A stretch of DNA of 58,309 nucleotides from positions 1 through 58,309 of the forward strand of contig JABMQH010000075.1 of assembly GCA_013203355.1 (NCBI GenBank), read 5' to 3'. Made by a program: the position numbers and the translations under genes. This DNA is from Candidatus Omnitrophota bacterium (GTDB taxonomy: Bacteria; Omnitrophota; Gorgyraeia; JABMQH01). Position 1 is the first letter of the stretch. Every line of letters begins with the position of its first letter. The notes beneath the pieces are model-generated. The model was not told the DNA's origin and made no database searches. It saw nothing but the letters and a program-made list of their open reading frames with translations. Below, in pieces: positions 33,691-55,100 of the stretch.

Positions 33691-33707
33691 ATTTCTCCCT
33701 TCGTCTT

Positions 33708-33762: not shown

Positions 33763-33803
33763 ATACATTCAGCAATGACGATGAACAATAAACTCTATGC
33801 TAA

Positions 33804-37792: not shown

Positions 37793-37830
37793 TTTGGTCT
37801 CGCTCCATTAAAGACCCCAATTACATCTAA

Positions 37831-37858
37831 ATCCCGTTAGATAAGTTTCTAACGGGAT
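37831..37858 (-). other. perfect 11-bp stem-loop between the 262-aa and 311-aa genes
   Basis: ATCCCGTTAGA-taagtt-TCTAACGGGAT. Only TT follows on the minus strand, so it is a weak terminator at best. It may be an intra-operon processing or stability element. Confidence 0.4.
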
Positions 37859-37906
37859 AAACATAGCAATCATTCTATTATCGCACACAATAATGTGTAA
37901 CGGGGT

Positions 37907-38692
37907 TCATTTCTCAAGCGCTATATCGTCAATAAGCACACCGCCCGAACCAGCGCCTTCAGGATAGCAATCTGCTTCAAAATTTATTGATACCGAAGAC
38001 AGGCTTGCGTAATCCAGAAAAAACACATTAAGCGGTATTTTGGCCTTCTGCCACTCAGTAGTAATCCTGCCTTTTTCCAAATAGACGCCTACCTCTTCTG
38101 ATTTTAAGGAGTCGCCCATCCTATCCCAATGCTCATCGGCTAGGCCAATCATAAAATTTTCACCACCCTCTTCACCTTTTACCCAAAAGGTTATGAGACT
38201 ATAATTTGACGCGTCAAAATACTGGCTGGTCCTTGGATTTTTAAGCAGTGTGTAATAGCCGCACCATCCGCCAAGCCCGCTGGGCCCGCCTGTATTCTTT
38301 TTTTCATACTTAATCATCAGAACCTTTGTTTCCTTGCCGGATATAACTTCATCGCGTTTCGCAAGCATAACCCTCGAAGGCGGCCTTACGTATATATTTG
38401 TTCGTGAACCAAGTTTATTCGTACCGCCCCCCTTTTCAAAATCATCAATGATGACTATGTCGGCATCCGGTGAAGCTGTCGGGTAAGGAGCGCTGGGTTT
38501 TACCGGCGCGCTTGAAGCCTGCGAACCTTGATCTGATGACTCAAACTTATTTATCACAGTAACCTCTTCGCTAATCGCCTGTTTCTTCTCTATGCCCGTG
38601 GTGATAAAATAGAAAATACTAAAGAGACATATTACATTAATTACTACGACCATCCCTACCTTTATTGCCTTCAGTTTATTTTTCTCCCCCAT
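37907..38692 (-). CDS. membrane-anchored protein with one CBM-like jelly-roll module
   Basis: I prefer the start at 38692 (MGEKNK.., GGAGG 8 nt upstream) over the track start at 38728. It has a TM helix and a Ser/Pro linker. The module reads GGWCGYYTLLKNP..ITFWVKGEEGGENFMIGLADEHWDRMGDSLKSEE..TTEWQKAKIPLNVFFLD..VLIDDIALE. Confidence 0.65.
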   Translation of the reverse strand: MGEKNKLKAIKVGMVVVINVICLFSIFYFITTGIEKKQAISEEVTVINKFESSDQGSQASSAPVKPSAPYPTASPDADIVIIDDFEKGGGTNKLGSRTNIYVRPPSRVMLAKRDEVISGKETKVLMIKYEKKNTGGPSGLGGWCGYYTLLKNPRTSQYFDASNYSLITFWVKGEEGGENFMIGLADEHWDRMGDSLKSEEVGVYLEKGRITTEWQKAKIPLNVFFLDYASLSSVSINFEADCYPEGAGSGGVLIDDIALEK

Positions 38693-38708
38693 GGAACCAA
38701 CCTCCGTT

Positions 38709-39317
38709 TCATTCAAACGCCACTTCATCTATATAAACCACGCCTCTTCCCTGCCCCTCAGGGAAACAATCGCCTTCAAAACAAATAGCCACAGAGGCCA
38801 ACTCCTTCATGTCCAGGAAAAATACGTCAAGTGGCACAGTCGCCTTCTGCCATTCTGTCGTAATATGATTCTTCGGCAGATACGCGCTGATCTCTTCTGA
38901 TTTTAAGGAATCGCCCATTTGCTCCCAGTATTTGTCTGCTAATCCAATTTTAAAATTCTCCTGCCCCTTCTCTCCTTTTACCCAGAATATAAGGTTTGTA
39001 AAACCCGTGGCATCAAGATATTTCGGGCCTGACTTTAAGAGAGAGTAATAACCACACCACCCACCCGTGTCATCGGGGCCGCCTACATTTTTCTTATCGT
39101 ATCTTATGACTAATGCCTTCCCCGAAGGCCCGTAATGCTCCCTGTCGCTAGTCGCAGCAGTCGCCCTTGAGGGTGCGCGTTGATACACGCTTGTGCGGCC
39201 GCCTAAAAGATTCCCAACCTTTTCAAAATGGTCAACGTAAAAAGGCTCGGCAAAACAAGGAGTGACATAAAACGAAATACATAAAACGCAAAATAGAAAT
39301 ACACTAACCTTCCTCAT
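38709..39317 (-). CDS. secreted protein consisting of one CBM-like jelly-roll module
   Basis: Signal peptide ..TPCFA-EP, then GGWCGYYSLLKSG..LIFWVKGEKGQENFKIGLADKYWEQMGDSLKSEE..TTEWQKATVPLDVFFLD..VYIDEVAFE. GGAGG precedes the ATG. Confidence 0.65.
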   Translation of the reverse strand: MRKVSVFLFCVLCISFYVTPCFAEPFYVDHFEKVGNLLGGRTSVYQRAPSRATAATSDREHYGPSGKALVIRYDKKNVGGPDDTGGWCGYYSLLKSGPKYLDATGFTNLIFWVKGEKGQENFKIGLADKYWEQMGDSLKSEEISAYLPKNHITTEWQKATVPLDVFFLDMKELASVAICFEGDCFPEGQGRGVVYIDEVAFE

Positions 39318-39320
39318 CGC

Positions 39321-40529
39321 TCAATCCTCCTTCAAATAGAATTTTAAATCATCAATATATACGGTTCCTTTTCCTTTTTCGTTAAAATTTATCACAAATG
39401 AACCCATCTGTGAAAAATCCAGCAGGCCAAAATCCTCAAGCGGTACGACTACCTCCTGCCATTCGGTGGTAATGCCGCCGGGCAGGTACTTTGCCACTCC
39501 GCCTGCCTTTAAGGAATCCCCTATTATGCCCCAATTCTTATCGGCCATGCCTATTTCAAATTTCTCGCCTCCCGTTTTGCCTTTTACCATAAAAGAGGCG
39601 GCCTTAAAGCCTGAAAGGTCGTAGTATTCTCCGTCTATTTGATTCAGCAACGTATAATACCCGGCCCATCCGGTTGATTCCCTTTTATAAACGATTTTTA
39701 AAGAGCGGCCTTTTGAACCAAAATACTCTTCGGATGACCTTCCGGTTTTGCATACCGAAGGAAGCTTCTTATAAGTATTTGTCTTCCTTCCGAGAAGATT
39801 TAAATCGGAATAATCAAAACTATCCAACAGCAAGAAGCCCTTCTTTTTTATCTGCTCCAATCTCCCCTCAAAAACCAAATCTTCTTTATAAAACCTTACT
39901 TCATCAATCCAGAATACGCCATCACTTATGTCATTAAATTGAAAAACCAGGCTATATGTCTTTGATATGTCAGGCCCGTAAAAGTCCGAAAGCGGAAGCT
40001 TAACCAGCTGCCAATTCTTCGTAAGGCCACTCGGCAGATACCTATCTATGGGCCCAATATAAACAGCATCTTCCCTTTTATTGGATATCACATCGTTCAT
40101 TCCGACTTCAAAAACCTCACCGCCTTTTTGTCCTTTAATTAAAAAGGAAATGGTTTTATATCCGGATAAATCAGCCATCAATATCATATAGGCGCCGCAA
40201 AAGCTTTTCTCGTCGGCCTTTTTATACATAACCTTTATTGCCTTATGATCCAGCGTATCTTTTGCCTCCTTAGTGGAATCTGCTATTGACTCGCCTTTAT
40301 AAAATACCTTCTTATCATAAAATACGCCAACCTTAGAAGGCGAGCAGACAAACCCACCAATCTTCCCTCTATATCCAAATCTCTTTTCGCTTTCAAAAAG
40401 CTGGGTTTCTTTTGGCATCGGCGGCAGGTCATTTATGCTAACAGAATCGGCTAAACTTACAGAGAATAAGGAATAGAAAACGGATGATAAGAAACAAAAA
40501 ATCGAAATGATTATAGCTTTTTTATTCAA
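39321..40529 (-). CDS. secreted protein with two tandem CBM-like jelly-roll modules
   Basis: Module 1: ISFLIKGQKGGEVFEVGMND..WQLVKLPLSDF..FWIDEVRFY. Module 2: GWAGYYTLLNQ..SFMVKGKTGGEKFEIGMADKNWGIIGDSLKAG..TTEWQEVVVPLEDF..VYIDDLKFY. Confidence 0.65.
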   Translation of the reverse strand: MNKKAIIISIFCFLSSVFYSLFSVSLADSVSINDLPPMPKETQLFESEKRFGYRGKIGGFVCSPSKVGVFYDKKVFYKGESIADSTKEAKDTLDHKAIKVMYKKADEKSFCGAYMILMADLSGYKTISFLIKGQKGGEVFEVGMNDVISNKREDAVYIGPIDRYLPSGLTKNWQLVKLPLSDFYGPDISKTYSLVFQFNDISDGVFWIDEVRFYKEDLVFEGRLEQIKKKGFLLLDSFDYSDLNLLGRKTNTYKKLPSVCKTGRSSEEYFGSKGRSLKIVYKRESTGWAGYYTLLNQIDGEYYDLSGFKAASFMVKGKTGGEKFEIGMADKNWGIIGDSLKAGGVAKYLPGGITTEWQEVVVPLEDFGLLDFSQMGSFVINFNEKGKGTVYIDDLKFYLKED

Positions 40530-42900
40530 GTTCTAACACCCCAAACGTGGTTGGGTCTCCCCAAACCCGGTTTTGTGACGTGGACATGAGTACCTTCATT
40601 GGATTGGTTATGTCATCCGTGTCTCCCACGTCTATCATTATACCAATTCTGCCTCCTTTAGGCAAACCTAAACTGGCTCCTTCTTCAGACCCTGGTCGAG
40701 AGGTTCCACTGCTTTCCGCCTGCATTGATTCAACATTACCCACGGAAATCTGTCTCTCATAAAGCAAGATCTCTTTTGGAATCCTCGCCTCAACAATATA
40801 CCCACTTTGCGTCTTGGAAGAGGCGACCTCCACAAGTTCCTTATACTTTAATTCCTCCGGTAGGGTAGGCACCCAGAGATAGACCTCTGGCTCTAAACTG
40901 GAAAAGTTTCCCGCATTTAGCCCAAATTGGAAATCATCATCTGATGTTACCGACTCATTCAAATCAGTGGCCAGGTCTATATCAAACCAGAGCTCCACGT
41001 GATCCCCCTCCCACATATCCTTGCCAACCTTTTCCTGAATGTATTTATCGTCTGTAACATCCATCGCAATATATAACGCATCCTTATCCCACTGAGTATA
41101 AAATTTATAACTTAAGTCCTCTTGCCCCTGCCACGCAATCTGGCCGTAAAGTACATATTTTTCATCCATAATTTCATAAGGCGTACTTAAACCCCAATCG
41201 TCTAACGCACCGTCTATTACCAAATCGCCCACCCTCTGAGCTGCCTTTATGATATAATTTTCTTTCCGCTGTTTAGTCGGCACATTTCTCCCTCTTGTCA
41301 TAATCCTATAGCTGTCATAACAGTGGATAGCGATGCCTTCAAAGCTTGGATCAAATAAGAATTCCTGTTTTACCCTGTCGAGCTGGCGCTCCATCTGCTC
41401 CCAGCCTTCCTCAATAAAGGTGTTGCGCCTTTTACCTTGGCGCATCGAGATCAGATCCTGTGTCTCGACCGCTATCACAACCCTCTTGTTCATTTTATTT
41501 GCCAGATCAATATGAAATTTCGCATGCCCGATAATCTCTTTTGCCGTATCATAATAATCCATCAGCGCGATATAATCTACGTACCCTAAAATCTCCTTCT
41601 CAAATGCGCCTTCATCCTCCTTGTCGTAAAAGAAAGGTATGGCCGCTCCCATCCGAAATTCCTGTTGGTAACTGTCGACGAGTTCTCTGCATTGCCTCAA
41701 TAGATCCACGTACTCCCTTTTTATCCTATCCCTATTCTGCTCCCATTCCGCGGTCAGATATGGCTCTACATCCAAAGAGACGCCGTCTATCCTCTCCTCT
41801 TCGGGCCTTCTGTTGTTGTAGTCCAAAAAGAATTTTATCCAATTCAGAAGCAAATAATGGTTTTCAGCTAAAGACCAGACTGGGTTACCTGTCAGGGCCT
41901 CTACTTTAATACCGATATCGTGACACTCTTTTAAGAATTCTGAGAGTGAGTCAAAATAACCCGCTTCCGGCATTTCGGTGAATTCCGGAAAGAACAGATA
42001 CAATACTCCGATATCCGCATTTTTACAAAGCTTAAATACGTTTTGCCTTTGCTTTTTATTGCTTATGGGATCTATTTTCCAAATCCAGAGTGCCCTTGGA
42101 TGCATAGGATCCTTTTCTGCCTGCGGCAGGTTGTATGCCTCTATCTTTGCGATACCTATGTCGTTCTTAAATTTGACATCCTCTACGTATACCTTCCCGG
42201 AACCTCCGTACTTAAAGAAAAAAATCAAAGACCCCATTTTGGACAAATCCATCTCGGAAGACAATCTTGACAATGGAATCTTTGCCTCTTTCCATTCCTT
42301 TGTGATAAACCTTCCCGGTAAAAATGAAGTAGCGGGCCCTAAGAAGCAGGCATCTATCTCAAGCTCCCTCATCTGCGCATCGGCTAACCCAACATCAAAG
42401 TTTTCCCCGCCTTCCTCGCCTTTGATCCAAAAACTTAGGGTGTTATATGAAGTTATATCAATATCATTCAAAAGCGTATACCACCCGCTCCACCCTCCTT
42501 CTTTTCTATAGTCAATAACCAGACTTTGGCCCTGCTCGCCTCTTATGACCTCGCGTGATTTAGTAATAATGGCGTAACTCGGCCTAACGGCAAACGTGCC
42601 CTGGTAGCTGCCTACCCTGTTTTTCCTTCCGTGAGCTATCCCGCTGGTTAATCCTACATCGAAATCATCCACTAAAATTTCATCCTGTAACAGCTCAGGC
42701 AGTATAGGAGTGCGCCATCTTCTTGTCCCTCTTATGACTACCTGAATAGGTTTCTCGAGGATTCTTCTGGCAATCCCTTTCAGCTCTTCCCTCTTCTCCT
42801 TGGCATTCAGCATAAAATATATATTAACCCCTGAAACTATTCCAAGGATAAATACCGAAATTATTATCCCGATTAATACGAATTTATTGAACTTTCGCAT
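40522..42900 (-). CDS. membrane-anchored protein: CBM-like module, GH-A-like TIM barrel and C-terminal CBM9/DOMON-like domain
   Basis: It has an N-terminal TM helix. The CBM-like module reads GGWSGWYTLLND..LSFWIKGEEGGENFDVGLAD..KEWKEAKIPLS..VYVEDVKF. The barrel has RALWIWKID.., IDGVSLDVEPY, ALMDYYD and VVIAVETQD. The C-terminus reads IDGALDDWG..YTQWDKDALYIAMDVTDD, as in CBM9-like domains. Confidence 0.65.
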   Translation of the reverse strand: MRKFNKFVLIGIIISVFILGIVSGVNIYFMLNAKEKREELKGIARRILEKPIQVVIRGTRRWRTPILPELLQDEILVDDFDVGLTSGIAHGRKNRVGSYQGTFAVRPSYAIITKSREVIRGEQGQSLVIDYRKEGGWSGWYTLLNDIDITSYNTLSFWIKGEEGGENFDVGLADAQMRELEIDACFLGPATSFLPGRFITKEWKEAKIPLSRLSSEMDLSKMGSLIFFFKYGGSGKVYVEDVKFKNDIGIAKIEAYNLPQAEKDPMHPRALWIWKIDPISNKKQRQNVFKLCKNADIGVLYLFFPEFTEMPEAGYFDSLSEFLKECHDIGIKVEALTGNPVWSLAENHYLLLNWIKFFLDYNNRRPEEERIDGVSLDVEPYLTAEWEQNRDRIKREYVDLLRQCRELVDSYQQEFRMGAAIPFFYDKEDEGAFEKEILGYVDYIALMDYYDTAKEIIGHAKFHIDLANKMNKRVVIAVETQDLISMRQGKRRNTFIEEGWEQMERQLDRVKQEFLFDPSFEGIAIHCYDSYRIMTRGRNVPTKQRKENYIIKAAQRVGDLVIDGALDDWGLSTPYEIMDEKYVLYGQIAWQGQEDLSYKFYTQWDKDALYIAMDVTDDKYIQEKVGKDMWEGDHVELWFDIDLATDLNESVTSDDDFQFGLNAGNFSSLEPEVYLWVPTLPEELKYKELVEVASSKTQSGYIVEARIPKEILLYERQISVGNVESMQAESSGTSRPGSEEGASLGLPKGGRIGIMIDVGDTDDITNPMKVLMSTSQNRVWGDPTTFGVLELE

Positions 42901-42966: not shown

Positions 42967-45900
42967 TTAGATTGCCGCAGCAGCTGCAGTCTTGGCATCA
43001 TGCGCCTGTTCCATTTCCGCAGAACTAACTGGTGTAGCCGGGGAGGAGATCCCTTTTTGTTGCATATAATCTCTTAAATCCTTTTGGGCGGCAGGAAGTA
43101 CTTTTTGATAGGGTCTAAGCGCCGGACTAAGATTTCCAAGATCAGCCGTTAATATCTGCTCGGAGGTTTTAGCAACGGTTCTTTGTAAAACGTTGCCTAA
43201 GGTCGTTTTTAAAAAACCGTAGGTCTTATCAACTATTTCCTGCTGTTGATCCGGCTGAACGCCGGTTATGGAAGATGGGAAAACAGCGCTTGCGCCCAGT
43301 CTTGTCAGCCCGATCTCAGTTATCGAATCCCTAAACCAGATCCAGCCAATTGGGATCTTTTTGCCGCCCCTATGTATATAAAACTTAATCTTATACCCTC
43401 CGTCGCCAATCTGACGGCGCATAGGGGGTTTCTCCCGGCGGTTACCCCTGCCGGGCTTAGCCCTTTCTTCATAATTTACATATTCATAACTAATGTCTTC
43501 TTTACTGACACCCCAGATTCCCGCTAAGCCTGAGAGTGCGCTTTCTCTAAAATCGCTTTCAAATACATCATCTACGGTATCCTTAATCAATCCAACTATC
43601 AAAGGTGGATTTATCATCTCGCCTTCCCCGCCAACTGTGAAGAAATCCGTAGTCTTGCTTGCGGGCAAATAGCTTATTACCCTATGCATAATCGTAGCCA
43701 TGCCTTCTCCCGTATCCCACCAGCTTTCGTCGAATTCGTCTTCCCGCCCCAGGCGCCTAAGCAATGCGCGCATGAACTGCTTGCCGGTAGCAGGACTTAA
43801 AAAATTGATAAGACTTTTTATGGTGTGGATCGGGTCGCGAACTAACAGGTCTGGGGTAAAATCGCTTCCATTGCTGCCTTCTCCGCCAACAATTACTTTA
43901 ATCTTTTCACCGTCGTGGCTAGCGTCAAATTGCTGCCTCACACTATCCGGGATTATGATTTCTTCTTCACCGCTTTCGGCGGCCTCTTTTAATTCGGCCC
44001 AAGTCATATTGGAAAGGCGTTCCATCCCATCCGCCACATATGCCTCCCCTGTTTGCGTACGTATGACAACAAATCCCAAAACCTCTGCCAGCTCTTCAAG
44101 CAATACCCCTGTCGGCCCATTACAGGAAACTCCTAAAATCCTTTTAGGCTGGTTTTTCTCAAAGTCATATTCACTCAACGCATAACTTATGACATCCAGC
44201 GCAAAGCAAATCTGTACCATATCATCCCTGAGGGAAAATTCGCCTTTTAAGTCAATGGGCCTGTAATTACGGCGGTCTCCGTCGGTGTCGTTATGCAAGG
44301 AACCTATCACCGTATAACCCTGCCGCACAGCTATATCCCTAATGCTTTCCAGCGCCTCGGTTGTTTCTGCCACAGCAGCAGTGGAAGGACAAAGCTCGTG
44401 ATCCATGTCATAGCGCGGCCGTGGATTAAGCCTGTAAGTTTTGATCCCCAACGCATCCAGGTAGCCCATATCCTCTCTTGCCCCACCGTTAGGATCAGAA
44501 ATAACTGCCAGTTTAAGCCGGGATATCATATCTCTAATTTCTGCTATGGGTGCTTGAGCCTGTTGGTTTGTTGAAACGCCAGCGATGATCCTATCGCGAT
44601 AATTCCAATCTGCTTGCTGGGATTGCTGTTTTACCTGTGGTATTCTTTCATAAACCGCTCTAACATCTTTGGGGTCAATGCTACTAACCTTTGCAATAAC
44701 GTCCCTTGTATGTGAAGCATTCTCCAAAACACCTTTTACCCGTCCTTTTCTTACTGACGGGTGACTGCCGCACAAAACGAATATATAAGGATAAGCAACG
44801 GGTTCGGGCATCACACGGCCATCCCCCAACAACAACTTTATCCCATTATAGCCCTCATCATTGTGTGATGCAGAAATATAAATACATCCGTCAATATCGG
44901 GATTGTCTTTAACATAAACCGCTGCCTCATCTACGCTGGCAACAAAGGCATATTCAACATCTACGCCTTCAGCTATAAGTGTGCGAATATCCACATCTGC
45001 CAAGGCGGGACCTGTACTTCTGGTATCTAATAAAACTGTTATCTTTTTTCTTTTTCTCTTCGTTTTAGAAGCTTGCGTTTTTTCCAATAAAGAAACAAAA
45101 TCGCTCTTATTTTGTTTATGCTGTTCAACAGTCTGATCTGCTAATCGCGGTATTCTTTCAGCAAACCCGCTAGGATCCTGTAACATCTGCGCAAAAAGTT
45201 CGGCCTGTGTAGCGGCATGAACCTTTGCCGCCATAGTAGGTTCTGTTCCGATGCCAAGACGCCATGGAAATCTTAACGGCAAAGGTCTGTCTCCAAAAAA
45301 CGGATCGAAAATCTGCCTAATGCCGGAAACGCTGAATACACCTGCAGTCGTCCTCTGCCATATGTCATCTTGAAGCTTATCGTAATCAATCATATCTATG
45401 TCACCGAAGGGGGCCCTGTCCGGATTGCCGATTTCCAATCTTGATCTTTCATTAATCATCGTATTCTGAACATCTTCCCATGTCCTTAAGGCCTCACCGG
45501 AAAGCGACAACTCTCCCGCCCGGGCAACAATCCTGGCCCATAGCGCTGGGTTGTCATTCCCATTTGTCGCCCTAAGATAAATCAAAATATAACGGCCGAG
45601 GGTATTCTCGGAGAGGTTATTAAAAAGATAATCTATCTCCTCATCACTTAACTCCGCTTTTCCTTCATGAATTATTTCCTGGTAGAGTCTATTGTGATGC
45701 ACTATGCGCCTTACACGTTTTTCTTTGCCTTCATCGCGGATGGTGAAATATCTGTTTTCCTTAACCAAAAATTTATCCTTTTTGAGCGCTTCACTCAAAA
45801 GATACCTTGTATGGCCAATGCTTAAAAAATGCTCTTGGCCTTCCGGCCTAACAAATCCTTCGGCCTCGAGGGCTTGATCAATAATAGTCAATGCCCCGGG

Positions 45901-48153
45901 GACTACAAGTTCTCCTCTGGCATTTCTAATATCTGTTATGATAACCGGGCCTGCTAATCTCGCGAAAACCCTATCTACTACCTCAGCGGCTCTTAATTCT
46001 ACCTCTTGCCTGCCTTTTATCCTCTGGCCCTTTTTTATCCTGACGGGTTCTCCATCTTTTGAAGCCTTTATAACGACAACTCCCCCATTAAAAAATTCAA
46101 CGCCGTCTTCTATTGTAACCGGGCCGTTCCCTTCTATTATAACTGTGGTATCGTCCCCGATTTTTACATTCCTGCCTATGTTTATTTCAAATCCATTCCC
46201 AAGATAACTGCCGCCAAGATACAGTCCCGCATTCCTGCCAAACCTAAGGGTAGGATCTATTTTTGCCCTGGCAAGCGGGCTGATTTCTACAACAGTGCCT
46301 TCTCCTATATTTTCGCCTGGGATCCCAAATTCCTGCTGCAGCCTTGCCATATGCTTAGATGCGTAATGGTCTCTGCTTTCAACAAATTTTCTCGCGTCCT
46401 TCGTAGGTAACGCATCCCCTTCATCCACCAATGCCACAGAAGTTGAGCCTAAAATTTCCGGCAGCCTTTGGATAGGCAGTTCGAGATTATCGGTTTGAAC
46501 TTTTGTGCCGTCTTTTTTATTTCTGCTCTTTTTCGACTGGACGAAGGGCTTCAGTTTCCTTGTCTCTATAACGGCCTTGAGGTTTTCCATGCTTAAATTA
46601 TAAGCGCCGGTGTTGGCTGGAATAACAAGCTCCGGGTTGGTAGCCTGCGCTTGACTTGAGGCCAATAAGCCATTAATCTCCTCCTGAAGATGTTGAATTG
46701 CCCCTGCCTTCAGTTCTTCAGATTCTGCATTTATTGCTTCAAGCCCTCCCATTGTTTCCACCATTTCGCTAAGCCTGTCTTGCAAAACGCCTTTACCTAC
46801 GCCCCATCTTGTACGATACACAAGGTCCTGAAGTCCATTATTCCTTTCAAAATACTCCACTATGGCTGCTGAGTCGGGATCCGTTGAAAAGAACGTACCG
46901 AGGGTAAATTCATCTTCAACATAAATCCCGGTAATATTGCCAGCATCATCTTTTTTGGTTTTTACGGATACTGTCCGGGGATAATCATAACCAATGGCGG
47001 ATAGTTCGCTGCCTGTAGCTTCTCTTGTCCCAACCAAACCTGATATTATTTCTGGCTCTAACGCCATATCCGTCTGTAAAAAGTTTGCATCTTCGACTTC
47101 GGGGTAATTCGCATCCAGCCATTCTAACGGTGTTTCCTCTGCTACCAGCGCCTCTTGGCCATTTTGCACAAGGAGCATGCCTTTATTACCTAATGCCATA
47201 ACAGTACCACCGCCGCCATCAGGCGCTTCTATGAACGTCCCATCAGGTTCCGACTCTATCGGACCCCAGCTCATGACAGCGCCGTCAGCATCATAGGTTT
47301 TATACACAGGGACAGCACTTTGGTCTTTTATAATAACCGTCTTCAGGCCAAAATAATTGTTTTTTCTAAGCGCTTCCAATATGGGCCTTCGTGTATCCGG
47401 GCCGACTATAACAACCACTGGGGAATCATCAGTATCTTGGGCGATTCTCCTCAATGATTCAAGAATAACCGTTATGGGGCTTTTGTGCATTATCTTCGAA
47501 TAAGGCACTGTCGGCTTTGAAATGCTTTTGAGCTCTGCTTTTTTTAAATCACCCGCGCCGATTTGCTGCCGCTGGCCTTCTGACATAGTATATAATTCCT
47601 GAAGTCGCGTACCGGCGCCTCCTGCCATAAGGACATTTATTACTTTCGGCATTCTTCTCATACCAATTGAAGAAGCATCCGAGGCACGTCTTATATTTTC
47701 GGTAGGGAATAAATTATGCGTAACTACTTCATAACCTTCCGGCCCGATAGAAACAGCCATGGGGATGTCGGAATAGTCTTGGAAGTTTATATTCGGAGGG
47801 GAGCGTGCGGAGTCATTTGCAATTATGTACTCTTTGACCGCCTTCATGTCCTTTAAAATAAACATCAATCTTTCAGCAACTAAACCAAATAATTTTTTAC
47901 TGGCTATGGTGGGGCTTTCGGCAATTTGAGCTTTTACATTATCCAGCTGCCTGGAATAGTCCCCTGCAAAAGAATTAAGCTGAGCGAGATCTTCTTTGGC
48001 CTTGGCAATTTTTGCATCTAACGTGCTTCGCTCAAGTAAAGGTAACTGCCTCAGGCAGGATTCGGGGGCAGGCCAGGTTATGGTGGGGGTTATAAATAGG
48101 ATTGATATAACTAACGCAATAATTTTGGAGGCAAGAACATTCGGCCTCATCAT
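42967..48153 (-). CDS. 1728-aa signal-anchored fusion of a UAP1/UDPGP-type UDP-sugar pyrophosphorylase (with beta-helix) and an alpha-D-phosphohexomutase
   Basis: N-terminus is MMRPNVLASKIIALVISILFITPTITWPAPESCLRQL. The pyrophosphorylase part has LMAGGAGTRL (M176), SKPTVPY and EAPDGGGGTVMAL. A hexapeptide-like region lies at about aa 611-725. The mutase part has VSGIRQ, YISASHNDEGYNGIK (S1096), HNDTDGDRR, GGEGSNG and FRDSITE. The start lies 1 nt after the stop of the upstream gene. Confidence 0.7.
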   Translation of the reverse strand: MMRPNVLASKIIALVISILFITPTITWPAPESCLRQLPLLERSTLDAKIAKAKEDLAQLNSFAGDYSRQLDNVKAQIAESPTIASKKLFGLVAERLMFILKDMKAVKEYIIANDSARSPPNINFQDYSDIPMAVSIGPEGYEVVTHNLFPTENIRRASDASSIGMRRMPKVINVLMAGGAGTRLQELYTMSEGQRQQIGAGDLKKAELKSISKPTVPYSKIMHKSPITVILESLRRIAQDTDDSPVVVIVGPDTRRPILEALRKNNYFGLKTVIIKDQSAVPVYKTYDADGAVMSWGPIESEPDGTFIEAPDGGGGTVMALGNKGMLLVQNGQEALVAEETPLEWLDANYPEVEDANFLQTDMALEPEIISGLVGTREATGSELSAIGYDYPRTVSVKTKKDDAGNITGIYVEDEFTLGTFFSTDPDSAAIVEYFERNNGLQDLVYRTRWGVGKGVLQDRLSEMVETMGGLEAINAESEELKAGAIQHLQEEINGLLASSQAQATNPELVIPANTGAYNLSMENLKAVIETRKLKPFVQSKKSRNKKDGTKVQTDNLELPIQRLPEILGSTSVALVDEGDALPTKDARKFVESRDHYASKHMARLQQEFGIPGENIGEGTVVEISPLARAKIDPTLRFGRNAGLYLGGSYLGNGFEINIGRNVKIGDDTTVIIEGNGPVTIEDGVEFFNGGVVVIKASKDGEPVRIKKGQRIKGRQEVELRAAEVVDRVFARLAGPVIITDIRNARGELVVPGALTIIDQALEAEGFVRPEGQEHFLSIGHTRYLLSEALKKDKFLVKENRYFTIRDEGKEKRVRRIVHHNRLYQEIIHEGKAELSDEEIDYLFNNLSENTLGRYILIYLRATNGNDNPALWARIVARAGELSLSGEALRTWEDVQNTMINERSRLEIGNPDRAPFGDIDMIDYDKLQDDIWQRTTAGVFSVSGIRQIFDPFFGDRPLPLRFPWRLGIGTEPTMAAKVHAATQAELFAQMLQDPSGFAERIPRLADQTVEQHKQNKSDFVSLLEKTQASKTKRKRKKITVLLDTRSTGPALADVDIRTLIAEGVDVEYAFVASVDEAAVYVKDNPDIDGCIYISASHNDEGYNGIKLLLGDGRVMPEPVAYPYIFVLCGSHPSVRKGRVKGVLENASHTRDVIAKVSSIDPKDVRAVYERIPQVKQQSQQADWNYRDRIIAGVSTNQQAQAPIAEIRDMISRLKLAVISDPNGGAREDMGYLDALGIKTYRLNPRPRYDMDHELCPSTAAVAETTEALESIRDIAVRQGYTVIGSLHNDTDGDRRNYRPIDLKGEFSLRDDMVQICFALDVISYALSEYDFEKNQPKRILGVSCNGPTGVLLEELAEVLGFVVIRTQTGEAYVADGMERLSNMTWAELKEAAESGEEEIIIPDSVRQQFDASHDGEKIKVIVGGEGSNGSDFTPDLLVRDPIHTIKSLINFLSPATGKQFMRALLRRLGREDEFDESWWDTGEGMATIMHRVISYLPASKTTDFFTVGGEGEMINPPLIVGLIKDTVDDVFESDFRESALSGLAGIWGVSKEDISYEYVNYEERAKPGRGNRREKPPMRRQIGDGGYKIKFYIHRGGKKIPIGWIWFRDSITEIGLTRLGASAVFPSSITGVQPDQQQEIVDKTYGFLKTTLGNVLQRTVAKTSEQILTADLGNLSPALRPYQKVLPAAQKDLRDYMQQKGISSPATPVSSAEMEQAHDAKTAAAAAI

Positions 48154-48154
48154 T

Positions 48155-51100
48155 TTATATACCGGAACTAACGGCTCTTCTTGTCTTTAATCCGTCCTGC
48201 GCAGCTTGAGTTGCCAGCGCACCAGCAACTACCGCTCCGGCTTCTCTGTCGAGTGCGGCGGCTCCTTTTTGTTTTCCTTCTCTTTCAATGACTGCAGGTT
48301 TCTCGAGCCGTGGGTTTGCCGGTACATAATAAAATCTTATCTCGTCGTTAGTGGTCTTCTGGGTCTTTTTGCTATTTTCGTAGGTGTCTTTCTCGCTTAC
48401 CTCTATTATTCTTTCAAATTCTACGGCGCCGGAAATTACTTCGCTGCCTGTAAGTTTTGCATGTCTCTTGCTTCTTGAAACCGAGCGTATGCCAACGCCG
48501 ATAGGAACCATTACGCGTTCTGTCGTTCCCCCAATCTCTACATCTTTAACAACATATAAATAATGCGCAACTAAATATTTTCTATGCTTCGCCCGTTCTA
48601 CCGGGTCGGGGTATTCTTTTGTTATGCGCGCCTCATTCTCAGGGTCAACACCCAATCCCTTCTGCTGCTCATCAACAATGGTCCTGCCCTCTTCATACGC
48701 CACCATAGCAAGGCCTGAGCTGTTTAAAGGAACGGCGCCGGGGTTGGTGACAATCTCATCATAGGTAACCTCTTTTTTGCCGTCTAATTTTCCGCGCCTT
48801 TGCACTAATCGTTCTGCTAAATGCCATTTATTAGTCCTTTTATCTCTTACAATGCGCCCGGTCGGCCGAATGGCACCTTTTACGTACTTTCCATTCTCGG
48901 CCCTTCTCGCTTGAGGTGATAGCATGATACGCATTTTTTTGCCTCCTACCTTTGCATCGCCAACAGCCGGCGGTTCGAGCTCCAGCGCCTTTTTAATAGT
49001 GGGGTGCCCTAAGGTAGTTGCCGTATCGGAGACTGTTTTTTTCTCTATAGCCTCTGTTAATTCTGCAACTCTGCGTTTCCAGAAATTCTCCAAAGCCGTA
49101 AGGTACTCTGCCATGGTCTTGCCTCCGGTTACAGGAAGGCGTTCGCTCCGTCCGGCTGCCCGCTGGACAGCCTTTTTGGCAAGCGGACTAATACGTTTTA
49201 GTATTGCTTTGGCAAATTCAAGTTCCCTTGTGGCCTGATTTGTCTGTGCCTTTTCATATTCGCCAGAGGCACTCTTAGTTTCTTCTGCAGTCTTGCTCCC
49301 GGCTACCTTCGCCCTACTATTGATGACCTGGCCGGCGGCCTTTTGAACACCTATATATTGTTCAATTGTTACAGGGGAAAAAATACTGGAGTCCTTCCTT
49401 CTTGAGCGGCTCTTTCTTGCTTTCACTTTCGTCATATCAGCTATCTCGGCAGCAATCCGCTTTTTCTCCAACTCTAATAACCTTGCTTCATTGGCCTCCA
49501 GGGCAGTCAGCAGTTGCTTTACATAACCCGGGCTCGGTTGGCTCTCGAGCCCATCCTGAAAGACAGTAAGGCTTTCAATGTCAAAATATGAGGATATATC
49601 ACGTTTATGCGAACCCACAAACCATTGAGTTACCGCACTACTATATCTCTTTGCTGACCCTCTCAGATAATCTTGCACCTGGCGTTGCCTCTCCCGAAAA
49701 TAGCGTAAGCCTCCTTCTATTTTATCTGCCCGGGTTTGAGTAAATTCTACTTCATATCCTGCCTGTATCCGTCTTCTTTGCAGTGTGGTCATACCAGTCA
49801 GGCGCGTTTGAAGCGGCATTGCGTCAAGCCCTGACTTAAGCGCTCTACCGTCCATACCAATAACGCGTAGCGGGTCAACCATGTTTGGCATGTTCCTCGA
49901 AAGCATGGTATGGTCATGCAATATATCCTCTGATCTACGCTGTGCATCAAGAAGGCTGACCCAGGCATCCTGGACTCTTCTCAATGCCTCTTTGCGCTCA
50001 TCTTCTGCTGCCATTATTTGCCTCTCTAGTGTGTTAGCATCACTCCTCGCGCTACGATTGCTCATCATGACCTGGAAGATCGCAAGGCGCTCTCCGTATT
50101 CCTGGTCCATGAGGAGTCCCTCATTCCGCTCGGATATGGACGGAGAAAGGGCTGATCCGAGGGCTACGCGAATCCTCATTGTCTGTCCACCCACCTCGTG
50201 TCGCTCTAACTCAATGGTGGCAAGCTGTAGCTCGCGCTCTCTCTTTTCTTTCCATTCCGGCAGTTCCCCTCGTATATATCTTCCGCGGTATTTACTCAGG
50301 TAATCTACGCGATGCCTGGCTAAACTAACCCTGGCATCTTGTTCGGCAATAACAGCTTTATTAAGCGCTTGTTGGGCATCAAAGGTATTTTCTTTTGTTG
50401 GGGATGTATCTTCCGCAGATATCTTCCGAAATCGCTGAAGTATGTTTATGGAATGTTGTTGTGTCCGTAGTAATTTGATGTTGGCTTTATAAACCCCGAC
50501 CTCTTTTTCTAGGTTTTGCACCGTTCTTGTGCGCCTACTCCGCCTAAACGCAATTTCCCGTTCGGCCGTCTTCTTCTGGGATTCTAAATGTGCGATCTCG
50601 GCATTCAGGAGTTTCTTCTTCTGTTCTAACTGCTGGTCGATCAAAGGTGCGCAATGCTCACTAAGAACCTTTTTTTGTTGTCCTTTTGACAACGCGGGGC
50701 GCCCTGGTATTAATAAGCATGGCTCATGCGCTGCTGAGAGATTTCGTCCTGCCCCAGGCAGAAATAAAATTCCCTGATCCAATAATTTGTCATTTAGTTC
50801 TCTTTCCTGTTGCGCCATAGCATGGTTGTATGCCGCTATTTGCTCAGCATATTTTAAAGAAGCCTGCGGTTCTACCACCTTGCCATATAGTGGATGTTTT
50901 GGCCCAAACTTAGATTTGAAGGGGTGAGCTTTAATAAAAGAATGGTCTTTAGACGTAAGCTCCTGGACGCTCTTAAGATAATCGCGCGTTGTCTTAGCAA
51001 GGGCTTGCCATACACTGCTCTGTTTTGCTTTATCATTGACGGCGCCAGCTTTGTAATACTGCGATAAAAGCTGATTCATCTTTTCTTTAAAAGCGGTATC

Positions 51101-51478
51101 CATCCGGCGTCTCAGAGAAGCGGATTTAGCGCGGCCTTCGATCATGATCCTCATATAAGAGTTAATGAGGCCTTGGCTTCCAAGAATCTCAAGCTCATCC
51201 TTCGCTTGGACTTTATTGTCTGCGCCTAAGGCGTCTAAAGTAGTACCTGGTGCAACGACACCTGCGGAAGTCAGTATCCCCATCGTTCTCAAAAAACCTC
51301 GACGACTCCTTCCTGCGGCGCTTAAGGCATCTAAATCATCTGCTTCACTCTGCCCGCCTTCAATTATGGCAAGCGGCCTTAGGGAAGATTGCGGCGCAGA
51401 CCAGGCGATATTAGAATACACCAGGAGTATTGAAAGTAGGATCGACCAAATTTTAAACATCTTGTTTCTGGTGTTCAT
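48155..51478 (-). CDS. 1107-aa coiled-coil-rich protein with an N-terminal hydrophobic helix and an internal twin-arginine-like motif; paralog of the core of the >2051-aa protein
   Basis: N-terminus is MNTRNKMFKIWSILLSILLVYSNIAWSAPQSSLRPL, followed by GRSRRGFLRTMGILTSAGVVAP (R59-R60). Long Glu/Arg/Lys/Gln-rich helical stretches follow. The C-terminal ~280 aa are about 65-70 percent identical by eye to the paralog. Confidence 0.7.
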   Translation of the reverse strand: MNTRNKMFKIWSILLSILLVYSNIAWSAPQSSLRPLAIIEGGQSEADDLDALSAAGRSRRGFLRTMGILTSAGVVAPGTTLDALGADNKVQAKDELEILGSQGLINSYMRIMIEGRAKSASLRRRMDTAFKEKMNQLLSQYYKAGAVNDKAKQSSVWQALAKTTRDYLKSVQELTSKDHSFIKAHPFKSKFGPKHPLYGKVVEPQASLKYAEQIAAYNHAMAQQERELNDKLLDQGILFLPGAGRNLSAAHEPCLLIPGRPALSKGQQKKVLSEHCAPLIDQQLEQKKKLLNAEIAHLESQKKTAEREIAFRRSRRTRTVQNLEKEVGVYKANIKLLRTQQHSINILQRFRKISAEDTSPTKENTFDAQQALNKAVIAEQDARVSLARHRVDYLSKYRGRYIRGELPEWKEKRERELQLATIELERHEVGGQTMRIRVALGSALSPSISERNEGLLMDQEYGERLAIFQVMMSNRSARSDANTLERQIMAAEDERKEALRRVQDAWVSLLDAQRRSEDILHDHTMLSRNMPNMVDPLRVIGMDGRALKSGLDAMPLQTRLTGMTTLQRRRIQAGYEVEFTQTRADKIEGGLRYFRERQRQVQDYLRGSAKRYSSAVTQWFVGSHKRDISSYFDIESLTVFQDGLESQPSPGYVKQLLTALEANEARLLELEKKRIAAEIADMTKVKARKSRSRRKDSSIFSPVTIEQYIGVQKAAGQVINSRAKVAGSKTAEETKSASGEYEKAQTNQATRELEFAKAILKRISPLAKKAVQRAAGRSERLPVTGGKTMAEYLTALENFWKRRVAELTEAIEKKTVSDTATTLGHPTIKKALELEPPAVGDAKVGGKKMRIMLSPQARRAENGKYVKGAIRPTGRIVRDKRTNKWHLAERLVQRRGKLDGKKEVTYDEIVTNPGAVPLNSSGLAMVAYEEGRTIVDEQQKGLGVDPENEARITKEYPDPVERAKHRKYLVAHYLYVVKDVEIGGTTERVMVPIGVGIRSVSRSKRHAKLTGSEVISGAVEFERIIEVSEKDTYENSKKTQKTTNDEIRFYYVPANPRLEKPAVIEREGKQKGAAALDREAGAVVAGALATQAAQDGLKTRRAVSSGI

Positions 51479-51586: not shown

Positions 51587-52165
51587 TTATATCACTTTTA
51601 AGAGCTCCACGATAAACACTTCAACGATCCTTGGATCAAACTGTTTGGCAGAATATTTACGCAATATTCTTATCGCCTCCTGAATTATCATAGCCTTTCT
51701 GTAAGGCCTCACTGAAACCATCGCCTCATAGGAATCGCAAACCGCTATGATCCGTGCACTGATGGGGATCCTGGATCCCTTCTTTCGTGCATTAGTCGGA
51801 TATCCGTTTCCGTTAAACCAGACGTGGTGATAATAGATTGCCTCGACAACCTCTTTGCTAAATCCTGCCTCTTTCACCAAACGGGCAGAAATTATCGGAT
51901 GCATCTTTATCTTAAGCCATTCAACGCTCGACAATCTTTGCTCTTTCCCCCAGATCCGCATATCTATTCCTATCTTTCCAACATCATGGATTAGGCTGGC
52001 GGCTATAATCATATCTTTTTTCTTGCCTCTGATCTTCAACACCTTACATAATGCCATGGCGTAATTTGCCACATTCTCGGAGTGGCAGGGCGTACAATTA
52101 TTCGTCCTGTCAAGTTTCCTCGCTAATGTCCTGAGGTCCTGTGGGGTGTATATTAGCTTGCCCAT
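51587..52165 (-). CDS. stand-alone HD-GYP domain protein (putative cyclic-dinucleotide phosphodiesterase)
   Basis: 192 aa with LIHDVGKIGI (HD) and YYHHVWFNGNGYP (a variant of the HHExxDGxGYP motif). There is no receiver or sensor domain. The start overlaps the end of the upstream giant ORF by 13 nt. Confidence 0.7.
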   Translation of the reverse strand: MGKLIYTPQDLRTLARKLDRTNNCTPCHSENVANYAMALCKVLKIRGKKKDMIIAASLIHDVGKIGIDMRIWGKEQRLSSVEWLKIKMHPIISARLVKEAGFSKEVVEAIYYHHVWFNGNGYPTNARKKGSRIPISARIIAVCDSYEAMVSVRPYRKAMIIQEAIRILRKYSAKQFDPRIVEVFIVELLKVI

Positions 52166-55100
52166 TTTTTAAACACTCTCCTAAAAGGTTTCTTAAAATA
52201 CTTCAGGAAATCCTCTCTGATCCTCGCAAAATGGATAGGGCTGGTTTTGAATTCTTCCTTATCCATAAATCGGTCTGTATCCCCGAATGCCGTCCTTGTC
52301 TGCGTGGATTTTTTACGCACCGGATATTTCCCTGCAGGCGTATCCTTGGTTCTTGAGAACATATATTCCAAATTAAGTGAAGTGATCAAAGGGATCAATC
52401 TTCGGTCTCTTGCGATTTTAATCAAGGTGTTCCTATCTAACCGTACAGATTCTAACCTGGTTAGATCTGTCAGGATAGGATAGTCCGCAAATAGGCTTTG
52501 TAAGTCTAGCTCCGTCATAAACGGCTCAAGCAAGCCGTCTATATCTTCTATCTTGTCCACGTCGAGTATCACGCCGTATGGCACTCCAAGGTCGCTTAAT
52601 TTCTTTTCCATCATATCCCGCTCAACAGATACAACTAATATATCTCTCCTGCCCATACCCCCTAACTTCTCCTGTACGGCTTGAATCATTCCTGCAGTTG
52701 CCTTTTCCTGAGGGATACCTATTACAAGAGAGGTCTTGCGGGTTTTTGGTATAACCTGTGTAATCTTAAATGACGAGGATAGTTCCATCCTTCCGGCAAG
52801 TTCTACAATAGGAAGTTCTCTTATGACGTCGGTTGCACTTATCGGTGGTTTTAATTCTCCAACTAATGGCTTTGCTTGTGGTGTTTGCTGCTGGATTTCA
52901 GCCTTTGCACCAGCCCAAAATTCTCCATCACTTGCTATCTGCTCTCTAGTTCTGCCAGAAGACCTATAGAAACTTGGATATAGCCCTTCAAGTCCTCCTC
53001 TTTCTAACAGGTCATAAATACTAATAAGCAGAATATGGGGATCGGCAGACACGCCTGATTCGAATCTCGTGACGTGTCTTGCTATTGCTTCATCTGCGGA
53101 CACTCCAGATTGCCTAATACTGTTCTCAGCCCTCCCTCTTAACAACCCGATATTTTGTTTCAATATTGTATCAGCATTTATGAATTCTTCATTAAATATG
53201 GCTATTATCTCCCTGCGAACTTCGGGGTTCTCCCATCCATCAATATAATTTCTTAAATACGTAAGCTCTCCCACATCTATAAATTGATCTTGAAGTACAT
53301 CTGGTACATCTGGTGGAATCTCTGCTATAACCTGTTGTGGATAATCTTCAAAATCATCAACATCGCAAAGACTATGGGCATGATCTATAATAGTTACGTC
53401 TCCTGTATCTCTATTTACGAGCATGTCGGGTGGATGAACTCTGGTAAATACAACTTCTCTTCCCCGCGCAAGTCTAGCCATATTTCTTATAAAATTCCTA
53501 GCTACTTCATTTTGGTTGGCATAACTTATTTTTTGATCTTCTGGTAGCTCGTTAGCACTAAGTCGCTCACCCGCAATCCTTGGTGCCATAGCACCCCTAA
53601 CACCTCCTAAAGTAAATATGTTATAAGTATTATATATCCCGCATGCCATAAGTAATTCGCTAGTAGCTCGACGTTGTTCAGGCCAGCTGCCATAAAATAC
53701 AGTCTCTATACTCCTCCCATCTCTTGTATTAAATGTTACAAAGTACGTAGAGCGGTCATTGCCTCCTGCAAATATCACTTCTCCTATAGGATTATTTGGA
53801 TCCAAATTAGCTGCTTCCTCTCCAAGATAGGTCAGTACAAGTCTTGTTAATTCATTTGAATCCAGCCTATATACATCTTTATATGTATGAGGATATTTCG
53901 TAAAATCAGGTTCTTGCGTAAAGGATTCGAATATATGTCGGTTTTGTTCTAGTGCATCTCTTAAAGCCCTACCTCTCGTCTCTTCTTCTGTCATTTTCTC
54001 TGCTGTTCTGGAAAAATCTGCAATCCAGCCTTCAACTACCTTACCAATACAAACCACTAGCCCAAATTGACCTTTCTCAGCGAGTACCCTCGCTTCCATT
54101 AAAGCGCTAACCACAAAATTCGCAACAAAACCAGGCGAGGTCTTATCGATAAACACATTGAATTCAGGATGTGCGCTAATACTTCTGGACAACGTAGGTA
54201 TTACACTCGCCACGTCGCCTGCGGTAGGCAAATCATCACGTCTTGCCATAGCAATATAATTTCTAATTTCATCAGAAATTCTATCCGAAGACAAAAATGC
54301 CACCATTTCCGCTTCCCTTTCATCAAATGTCTTGACTTCTATACATGAATTAATAATACCTTGTGAGGAAAATTCTGCATCACGTCTTCCGATAACACGT
54401 AATCTGCCTAAATAAGCTTCGTATGCACCAGGATCAATTGCCCCTGCTTGGAAAGTGGCATTTATATCCCTAATCAGTGCTGTTGCCGTCGCTATCATAT
54501 GGAAATTTACATGATGGCTGCGCTTACTTGACCCAAAGAACTCGACATTACTATCGAGCTTGTCTATCCTAGCATCTATTGTCTCACCCATACCAGCAGC
54601 CGACATAGCGGCAGCTGCAACCACTGTTTCACCTTTTCTGTCAGCTGCAGCTTGACCCTTTGGCTTTTTTTCGGTTTCAATAACTGCGGGTTTCCCAAGA
54701 CGCTCGATCGACGGAACCAAGTAAAATCTTACCTCTTCTGTGGTGGTCTCTTGCGTCTTTGTGCTGGCCTCATAGGTGTCTTCTTCTGTTACGTCTATTA
54801 CATTTTCAAATTCTACACGGCCGGCTATTACATCTGCTGCTGTAAGCTTTGTATTCCTTTCAGTTCTTGAAAGCGAGCGTATACCGACACCGACAGGAAC
54901 CAGCATGCGTTGTGTCCTTCCTGAAACCTTTACATCTTTACCAACATAAAGGTGATGCGCAACTAAATATTTTCTATGCTTTGCCCGTTCTTCTGGATCA
55001 GGATATTGGTCTGCTATGCGTGCTTCATTCTCTGGGTCAACGCCTAACTCCCTCGGTTGCTCGTTAACAACGGTTCTGCCTTCTTCGTATGCTACCGTGA

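Follow-up and report, generated by a model that had tools for sequence, protein, structure and literature searches.

Candidatus Omnitrophota bacterium contig JABMQH010000075.1 (assembly GCA_013203355.1; 58,309 nucleotides, hereafter the window) encodes on 42967..48153 (-) a 1728-amino-acid (aa) open reading frame (ORF) with an ATG start. An initial reading made from the letters alone (the sequence-only reading) saw in this ORF a UDP-sugar pyrophosphorylase fused to a phosphohexomutase behind a signal anchor. We asked whether one polypeptide truly joins these two enzymes, which sugar they would handle, and on which side of the membrane they would do so. The 1728-aa protein is a member of a rare, mainly Omnitrophota family that builds a nucleotidyltransferase (NTase) into multi-enzyme, often giant, sugar-modifying proteins. 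As to its enzymatic identity, it is probably a membrane-tethered two-enzyme protein that joins a mutase to a UDP-sugar-forming NTase.

The N-terminal half is predicted to be a UDPGP-superfamily nucleotidyltransferase, nearest to the UAP1/AGX type. Profile searches, hhalign, and AlphaFold2 (AF2)/Foldseek comparisons delimit a divergent UAP1/UDPGP-type sugar-1-phosphate NTase core at residues ~166–628 (46270..47658 (-)). An 18-sequence profile of the NTase domain (A4) was used for the PDB search, hhalign, and AF2. In the PDB, its best 11 matches were all eukaryote-type UDP-GlcNAc pyrophosphorylases of the UAP1/AGX group (4e-19 to 6e-13), followed by UDP-sugar pyrophosphorylase (USP, 2e-8) and UGP (4e-6). 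hhalign paired A4 with a canonical PF01704 UDP-N-acetylhexosamine (UDP-HexNAc) diphosphorylase alignment at 99.9% (E=1.6e-31) across 340 columns, and the closest canonical relatives among 5.8 billion proteins are PF01704 proteins source-named UDP-GlcNAc/UDP-GalNAc diphosphorylases. An AF2 model built on a three-sequence alignment was unusable (predicted local distance difference test score, pLDDT, 45); rebuilt on the 18 sequences of A4, the model of the N-terminal NTase module (N-module) reached a pLDDT of 81 and a predicted TM-score (pTM) of 0.84. The best 50 PDB folds retrieved with it by Foldseek were all UAP1/AGX/USP (E=4.6e-18 to 2.6e-14), with a TM-score of ~0.6, normalised to the target, for UAP1.

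These results uphold the proposal that the NTase resembles UAP1/AGX1 rather than GlmU, given the UAP1 profile match at 4e-19. GlmU-type identity was rejected: GlmU structures match only profile positions ~320–462, the beta-helix region, with E at least 9.5e-5, against ~1e-19 for the UAP1 core. The label ‘eukaryote-type’ in the sequence-only reading holds for the UDPGP fold class and says nothing of eukaryotic or archaeal ancestry; the NTase family is an isolated, Omnitrophota-centred clade.

Alignment with canonical enzymes placed the catalytic motifs one by one. LMAGGAGTRL (residues 175–184) lies opposite LLAGGQGTRLG, SKPTVP (212–217) opposite PKGMY.V, NNYFGL (265–270) opposite N.YFGL, DQSAVP (277–282) opposite QQGMLP, and (E)APDGGGG (309–316, with APDGGGG at 310–316) opposite SPDG(H/N)GG. 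Further along, the QTD of LQTDMA (359–364) pairs with VDN, IVEYFE (431–436) with VIEYSE, PANTGAY (512–518) with AGNI, LPTKD (582–586) with SPVKN, and VEISPL (622–627) with an identical VEISPL. Within these motifs, family-wide invariance falls on exactly both Lys, G.GG, the Asp, and the Glu. K213 of SKPTVP aligns to the canonical PKG Lys and K585 of LPTKD to the SPVKN Lys, both family-invariant, and the E-Y of IVEYFE and the Asn of PANTGAY are retained at HexNAc-pocket positions. A helical insert of ~70 residues (~437–505) is specific to the subfamily.

Two further segments complete the N-module. Ahead of the core lies a helical extension (residues ~44–165; 47659..48024 (-)), conserved with family members P0002 and P0003 (543–660 there), on which the family scan found no match. 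Behind it, residues ~629–720 (45994..46269 (-)) form a short, left-handed beta-helix-like C-terminal domain. The sequence-only reading had described a beta-helix here as in UDPGP enzymes. Profile matches to hexapeptide, gamma-carbonic-anhydrase, and GlmU beta-helix proteins (E=7e-5 to 1e-2) speak for it, as do alignments to UGP structures that extend through the UGP C-terminal region; AF2 confidence across the segment is low. The beta-helix fold is thus plausible and only moderately supported.

The C-terminal portion is a predicted alpha-D-phosphohexomutase with large inserts (residues ~936–1640; 43234..45348 (-)), identified by Pfam, NCBIfam, and hhalign. Pfam domain I (PGM_PMM_I, PF02878) matched at 5.5e-15 (55.7 bits against a 22.5-bit cut-off), and domains II (E=0.027) and III (E=0.0097–0.069) were weak on the query; in P0031 and P0036, remote relatives that also carry the fusion, domain II reaches significance. 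As a comparator we used the window's canonical four-domain mutase (7135..8490) together with two orthologues from Omnitrophota loci. hhalign gave 89.8% for the query/P0002 pair against the canonical window mutase, 97.4% against the three-sequence canonical profile, and 98.4% (E=4.9e-15) over domains I–III when a four-sequence profile of the region was set against the canonical profile. Three loops fall in register: SASHND/TASHNP, DTDGDR/DPDADR, and GGEGSNG/GGEGNGG. The alignment starts at SVSGIRQ (residues 941–947, the N-terminal SGxR motif), opposite canonical ISGVRG, so the mutase begins at ~936, close to the ~930 first proposed; DTRSTG follows at 1042–1047.

The phosphoserine loop SASHND occupies residues 1094–1099, with the Ser at S1096 (44857..44874 (-)), the metal loop DTDGDR residues 1289–1294 (44272..44289 (-)), the sugar loop GGEGSNG residues 1423–1429 (43867..43887 (-)), and the candidate phosphate loop RDSITE residues 1608–1613 (43315..43332 (-)). 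All four, like LMAGGAGTRL and EAPDGGGG in the NTase, were found where the sequence-only reading had put them. Given the hhalign scores of 99.9% (E=1.6e-31) for the NTase and 98.4% (E=4.9e-15) for the mutase, the motifs of both predicted enzymes exceed chance. The mutase loops are invariant in four versions of this region (the query's and those of P0002, P0024, and P0026) that are only ~54% identical, as is the motif GDGGYK...GW.WFRDS.TE; P0026 carries canonical SASHNP in the SASHND column. The best matches of the mutase are archaeal-type GlmM (TIGR03990, 2.9e-21), P. horikoshii-type phospho-sugar mutases, and bacterial GlmM; AGM1 is absent from among these matches.

The joining of the two enzymes recurs in other assemblies. 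In P0002, which comes from an ENA assembly of independent origin, this uninterrupted architecture spans 1742 aa at 48% identity, and the P0002 gene is followed by a homologue of the 792-aa gene downstream in the window. Two giants, P0024 (3521 aa) and P0026 (4521 aa), carry the NTase, a middle module (M), and the mutase in the same order within single ORFs, and in the remote relatives P0036, P0031, and P0034 PGM domains follow the NTase with Pfam-significant domains I–III. The claim of a single-polypeptide fusion, as opposed to merged genes, is therefore borne out by a shared order in six relatives.

The family itself is rare. Two relatives were found among 5.8 billion clustered proteins, and exhaustive profile searching of 1.84 billion yielded 35 representatives; none of 185,579 GTDB species-representative genomes and none of the contigs in a JGI metagenome scan contained the family. 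Its other members have different partners: a PIG-L deacetylase with the N-module in P0003, NAGPA in P0032, PP2C in P0022, WbqC in P0017, and a B12-radical-SAM domain with PIG-L, WbqC, and the NTase in the giants P0008 and P0009. In P0005, from a fully syntenic 22-kb locus, the N-module bears an unrelated extension of ~490 aa. The partner domains are sugar-tailoring enzymes, several acting on GlcNAc-type substrates. The literature yielded mutase-UDPGP fusions as engineered chimeras only, in a search that was limited and is no proof that natural ones are absent.

Between the NTase and the mutase, the sequence-only reading had seen a joining region of ~200 aa without recognisable motif. This region (residues ~721–935; 45349..45993 (-)) indeed has no match in Pfam or, by profile search, in the PDB. 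It is not a linker, however: it is a conserved domain, module M, that travels with the mutase and lies directly upstream of it in P0002, P0024, and P0026. At locus L002, module M has a gene and a leader to itself. That gene (4508..5692) breaks off just past the first helix of the mutase; the 214 nt that remain of the contig hold no mutase coding sequence, and this Logan contig is possibly truncated or chimeric. L002 is thus only partly usable as proof that M exists as a separate gene, since the contig ends before the mutase.

Module M and the mutase together behave as a unit. The close relative L009 (~85% DNA identity) lacks in frame 2,972 bp (43022..45993 (-)): by blastn, L009 8–2945 matches window 48928–45994 at 84.5%, and L009 2966–3444 matches window 43021–42542 at 84.8%. 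In the slot between its homologues of the 1107-aa and 792-aa genes, L009 encodes a 743-aa N-module only, with the ...EQAHDA..AAAAAI tail retained. Because L009 lacks exactly residues ~721–1710, M+mutase is a discrete cassette of ~990 residues. Since the cassette is present in the more distant P0002, loss in the L009 lineage appears the more parsimonious explanation. The GC content and third-position GC content (GC3) of the cassette do not differ from those of its flanks, and foreign acquisition, judged by composition, gave no signal. The window cassette shares ~54% identity with its counterparts in P0002, P0024, and P0026 alike, whereas the window NTase is 46% identical to that of P0002 and only ~34% identical, over ~210 residues, to those of the giants. 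This contrast suggests module shuffling or unequal rates.

Several observations weigh against the two-enzyme reading. The HMM scan for UDPGP (PF01704) suggested by the sequence-only reading found no match on the query even at E<=1, NCBIfam reported no UDPGP and only partial mutase matches, and a single-sequence PDB search reached a UAP structure at E=0.8; the homology is consequently visible only via the family profile or a structure model, with PF01704 matched directly by 4 of 16 family members (1.5e-6 to 9e-4, mostly under the 22-bit cut-off). In the NTase, Gly stands in place of the canonical UAP Asn of PDG-N-GG, and Met in place of that of VD-N. In UAP1/AGX1 structures both Asn line the uridine/sugar pocket, so specificity, or even activity, may differ. 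In the mutase, the phosphoserine loop has Asp for the canonical Pro, and the Arch_GlmM match (TIGR03990) is partial, at 75.9 bits against a 439-bit cut-off. The suggested scan for PGM_PMM_I–IV, strong for I and weak for II and III, gave no match for domain IV (PF00408) on the mutase sub-sequence. WIWFRDSITE is the best local match to WVHVRSSNTE, with a weak hhalign E=0.1–0.14, and pairwise local alignment of domain IV with the canonical mutase was no better than shuffles. Of the four-domain, four-loop mutase first claimed, domains I–III and three loops thus stand, and domain IV is a candidate at motif level, right in motif and location and not in statistics. The nearness to archaeal-type GlmM/PGM-PMM means that a GlcNAc-6-phosphate mutase role is not established. 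Finally, L009 does without the cassette altogether.

On balance, we favour the following scheme. A single polypeptide would be tethered by one N-terminal hydrophobic segment, and its two enzymes would share, and may channel, a sugar-1-phosphate intermediate. The C-terminal mutase would interconvert sugar-6-phosphate and sugar-1-phosphate via phospho-Ser1096, with Mg2+ held by D1289, D1291, and D1293. The N-terminal UAP1/UDPGP-type NTase would convert sugar-1-phosphate and UTP to UDP-sugar and pyrophosphate via the GGxGTRL loop, K213, and K585. Module M plus the mutase would be a mobile cassette of ~990 residues gained by, or lost from, a core N-module. The substrate is most likely a hexosamine or N-acetylhexosamine, because of the nearest canonical relatives, the partner domains, and the neighbours: PIG-L, NAGPA, and WbqC occur in the family, GH18-like/CBM proteins, NagB, and DUF4954 in the cluster, and GH94 and a canonical mutase in the window. 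The consecutive HexNAc steps first claimed are therefore plausible and unproven, the mutase being nearest archaeal-type GlmM/PGM-PMM rather than AGM1 and two UAP Asn being replaced.

Where such a protein would act turns on its N-terminus. A Kyte-Doolittle scan of the 1728-aa protein found a sole hydrophobic segment at ~8–27, within a leader of residues 1–43 (48025..48153 (-)) that carries R3 and K10 and, after the hydrophobic segment, W-P-A-P-ES-C-LRQ-LPLL-ER. The motif following the segment has the consensus W-[SAP]-A-P-x2-[CS]-L-R-[PQ]-x4-E-R. This leader is common to the otherwise unrelated 1107-aa (leader at 51350..51478) and 462-aa (leader at 1564..1692) proteins of the window and to neighbours in L001, L002, and L010. 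In the window and in L001, L002, L009, and L010 it is paired with a C-terminal Ile, which ends 15 of 15 complete leader proteins and 4 of 53 without the leader (Fisher p=9e-12, for proteins drawn from few clusters and hence not fully independent). The 1728-aa protein ends in a conserved tail, ...EMEQAHDAKTAAAAAI, with the terminal Ile followed by the stop (42967..43023 (-)); the tail is homologous to that of P0004, and other family members and neighbours end in ...AAAI, ...AAQI, or ...xxI. An NCBIfam scan of the leader returned no curated sorting-signal model. The signal anchor of the sequence-only reading thus survives as a single hydrophobic segment, now as part of a conserved, shared leader paired with a C-terminal Ile, which may constitute a new sorting or tethering signature.

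Three observations adjoin this signature. In L002 (730..4431), the called 1233-aa P0003 has the leader motif at residues ~190–218; the call probably starts too far upstream, and the true start is likely near residue ~170. A 3749-aa ORF (19614..30863 (-)) has a signal-peptide-like N-terminus and ends in Ile (...TAENI) without the LR[PQ] leader motif. A protein with TPR and PDZ domains (34761..36860 (-); L010 18017..20155) has an ordinary signal-peptide-like N-terminus and is syntenic with leader-bearing genes. PDZ domains bind hydrophobic C-termini, and we speculate that the TPR-PDZ protein could be a reader of the C-terminal Ile.

The leader could instead drive Sec-type export, such that the NTase and mutase act beyond the cytoplasm, for instance on sugar phosphates or nucleotide sugars on the cell surface or inside a host or prey cell. 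With R3 and K10 before the hydrophobic segment and a net charge of ~0 after it, the positive-inside rule applied to residues 1–45 favours an N-in/C-out topology and predicts the bulk of the protein outside the cytoplasm, which also counts against our preferred scheme. The sharing of the leader among co-clustered proteins and its pairing with a C-terminal Ile, reminiscent of a dedicated sorting signature, point the same way, as do neighbours that are secreted-type CBM/GH18-like proteins and a PDZ protein; export would also fit the predatory or epibiotic lifestyle proposed for Omnitrophota. On the other side, UTP and sugar phosphates are not expected outside the cytoplasm nor available outside cells, and a Pro right after the small-residue W-[SA]-A site disfavours ordinary signal peptidase I cleavage.

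Two preprints on Omnitrophota giant proteins bear on this question. They describe a ‘sugar metabolism module’ with PGM/PMM, radical SAM, and response regulator domains, and PGM/PMM domains that recur in giants bearing a signal peptide (SP) or transmembrane segment (TM), and they leave the membrane side unresolved (10.64898/2026.06.07.730766, 10.1101/2023.11.21.568195). In favour of export, the PGM/PMM and glycolytic domains of the giants were predicted to be extracellular (10.1101/2023.11.21.568195), and 94% of long Omnitrophota proteins have an SP or TM (10.64898/2026.06.07.730766). Against it, the same preprints caution that the predicted extracellular position may be a mislocalisation and that a place on the cytoplasmic face would suit sugar-metabolism modules (10.64898/2026.06.07.730766, 10.1101/2023.11.21.568195). 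By term counts, neither mentions ‘pyrophosphorylase’, ‘nucleotidyltransferase’, the leader motif, or a C-terminal Ile (10.64898/2026.06.07.730766, 10.1101/2023.11.21.568195), and the absence of NTase terms fits an NTase that is invisible to Pfam. We regard export as unlikely, though worth keeping in view. A bolder version, in which the leader and the obligatory Ile are the two ends of an undescribed Omnitrophota sorting or tethering system that places sugar-nucleotide ‘factories’ at or beyond the envelope, possibly for surface glycan or for host or prey action, strikes us as doubtful. If it were true, the 1.7-thousand-residue (1.7-kaa) protein would be the smallest tractable cargo, and the giants with radical-SAM, PIG-L, and WbqC domains would be cargo too.

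The genomic neighbourhood bears on the physiological direction of the pathway. The 1728-aa gene sits within a long series of closely packed, same-strand genes. As first claimed, a single nucleotide separates it from the upstream 1107-aa gene (48153..48157 (-); TAA stop at 48157–48155, one base, then ATG at 48153). The corresponding gaps in relatives are 4, 16, and 27 nt, so tight linkage is conserved and exact overlap is not; translational coupling of the two genes can at most be inferred from this spacing. Downstream, the conserved order comprises a CBM9/CBM30/GH18-like 792-aa protein, three CBM30 proteins, a 311-aa protein, the TPR-PDZ protein, NagB, and DUF4954, and is kept in L010 and partly in L001 and L009.

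Within this order, 36857..42900 (-) encodes four CBM30-bearing, membrane- or signal-anchored paralogues (792, 402, 202, and 273 aa), a block conserved in L010. A domain of ~270 residues with a weak GH18 match is common to the 792-, 311-, and 699-aa proteins. At 31777..34574 (-), a DUF4954 protein whose hexapeptide beta-helix region resembles that of GlmU adjoins a NagB-type glucosamine-6-phosphate deaminase/isomerase, both syntenic in L010, and the two possibly supply further hexosamine-pathway steps of the same cluster. On the other flank, the 1107-aa and 2015-aa proteins share a paralogous segment (one L009 fragment matches both, at 81% and 62%) and match nothing in Pfam or the PDB. Twin-arginine-like motifs (e.g. 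SRRGFLRTMGILTSAGVV) occur internally, well past the N-terminus, at residues ~54–94 of the former (48155..51478 (-)) and ~171–200 of the latter (52153..58200 (-)), with weak matches to a twin-arginine translocation (TAT) target model (E=0.03–0.11). Farther away, at 7135..12223 (-), a GH94 protein (cellobiose/chitobiose-phosphorylase family) is encoded immediately upstream of the canonical four-domain phosphohexomutase (7135..8490) and forms with it a phosphorolytic oligosaccharide-utilisation unit; the genome thus has a standard mutase besides the fused one. The GH94 protein is 63–79% identical to proteins of several Candidatus Omnitrophota metagenome-assembled genomes, and a probable ROK-type regulator, judged by its N-terminal sequence, lies nearby.

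This setting raises a catabolic or salvage role, in which sugar-1-phosphate released by a GH94-type phosphorylase from imported chito- or cello-oligosaccharides would enter glycolysis through the mutase or the UDP-sugar pool through the NTase. The window supplies the pieces (GH94, a canonical mutase, a ROK regulator, transporters, NagB, and GH18-like/CBM9/CBM30 proteins), and both reactions are reversible and meet at sugar-1-phosphate, by established PGM/UDPGP enzymology. Yet GH94 has its own canonical mutase immediately downstream and lies ~32 kb from the 1728-aa gene, the conserved synteny block (L010, L001, L009) has CBM, PDZ, and NagB proteins with GH94 not shown in it, and relatives fuse the NTase to the biosynthetic-type tailoring domains radical SAM, WbqC, and PIG-L. 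We therefore consider salvage rather improbable. Export and salvage differ from the tethered two-enzyme scheme mainly in location or physiological direction, and neither is exclusive of it.

A third alternative is that at least one of the two modules is catalytically dead and, by binding sugars or nucleotides, serves a membrane complex in a structural or regulatory way. Extreme divergence, with UDPGP and PGM domains II and IV missed by Pfam, would fit such a pseudoenzyme, as would the Pro-to-Asp change in the phosphoserine loop, the loss of two canonical UAP Asn, the large mutase inserts, and a cassette that is dispensable in L009. Set against this, the phospho-Ser, the three metal Asp, the sugar-loop Glu-x-Ser, R-x-S-x-T-E, GGxGTRL, and both Lys are kept at 25–54% identity, and P0026 keeps canonical SASHNP at the same position, which makes inactivity distinctly unlikely. 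An assembly or sequencing artefact, whether two or three merged genes or a chimeric contig, might be read from the lone 743-aa N-module of L009 and the separate N-module and module M genes of L002, but is scarcely credible and, as a merge, rejected in view of the independent, uninterrupted P0002 with its shared downstream gene, the single-ORF order of P0024 and P0026, in-frame cassette junctions followed by a homologous C-terminal tail, and uniform composition.

Set beside known systems, the tethered two-enzyme protein is familiar in its parts and distinct in its assembly. With UAP1/AGX1 (PF01704) it shares the fold (Foldseek E=4.6e-18), a 99.9% profile-profile match across the catalytic core, and the elements GGxGTRL, (P/S)K, YFGL, QG.P, PDGxGG, the D of VDN, EY, N, the catalytic K, and VEISPL. 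It differs in its ~16–25% identity, below Pfam detection, in inserts of ~25 residues between GTRL and the Lys and of ~70 helical residues at 437–505, in an extra beta-helix-like C-terminal domain that resembles UGP/USP more, in the replaced Asn of PDG-N-GG and VD-N, and in its membrane segment, leader, and fusion to other enzymes. Archaeal-type GlmM/PGM-PMM (TIGR03990; P. horikoshii 1wqa-like) has the same domain order I–III, three loops in register, and R-x-S-x-T-E at the expected place, and GGEGNGG, the sugar loop of the window's canonical mutase, is similar to GGEGSNG. Unlike that group, the fused mutase runs to ~700 rather than ~450 residues, with inserts in domains I, I/II, III, and IV, reads SASHND for SASHNP, and is always preceded by module M.

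GlmU likewise has two functions in making UDP-HexNAc and carries a left-handed beta-helix behind its nucleotidyltransferase. In the 1728-aa protein, however, the NTase core is not GlmU-type, the beta-helix is short, with no acetyltransferase site identified in it, and the second activity is a predicted mutase. The Omnitrophota giant proteins come from the same phylum, bear an SP or TM, and contain metabolic enzyme domains, and members of 3.5–4.5 kaa hold the identical M+mutase cassette; the protein studied here is a compact, two-enzyme version of 1.7 kaa.

Both enzyme families and the Omnitrophota habit of fusing metabolic domains are already known. New are a rare UAP-like family invisible to Pfam, its repeated fusion to a mutase cassette, a clean cassette polymorphism, and the leader/C-terminal-Ile signature, which may be a new sorting signal. 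The cassette indel between ~85%-identical genomes is a natural experiment on the assembly of multi-enzyme proteins. At 1.7 kaa, the protein offers an expressible model for asking whether the enzyme domains of SP/TM-bearing Omnitrophota proteins lie inside or outside the cell. An NTase family missed by standard domain scans adjoins the PGM domains already noted in Omnitrophota megaproteins; hence, the ‘sugar metabolism modules’ of this phylum probably make activated sugars, not just sugar phosphates.

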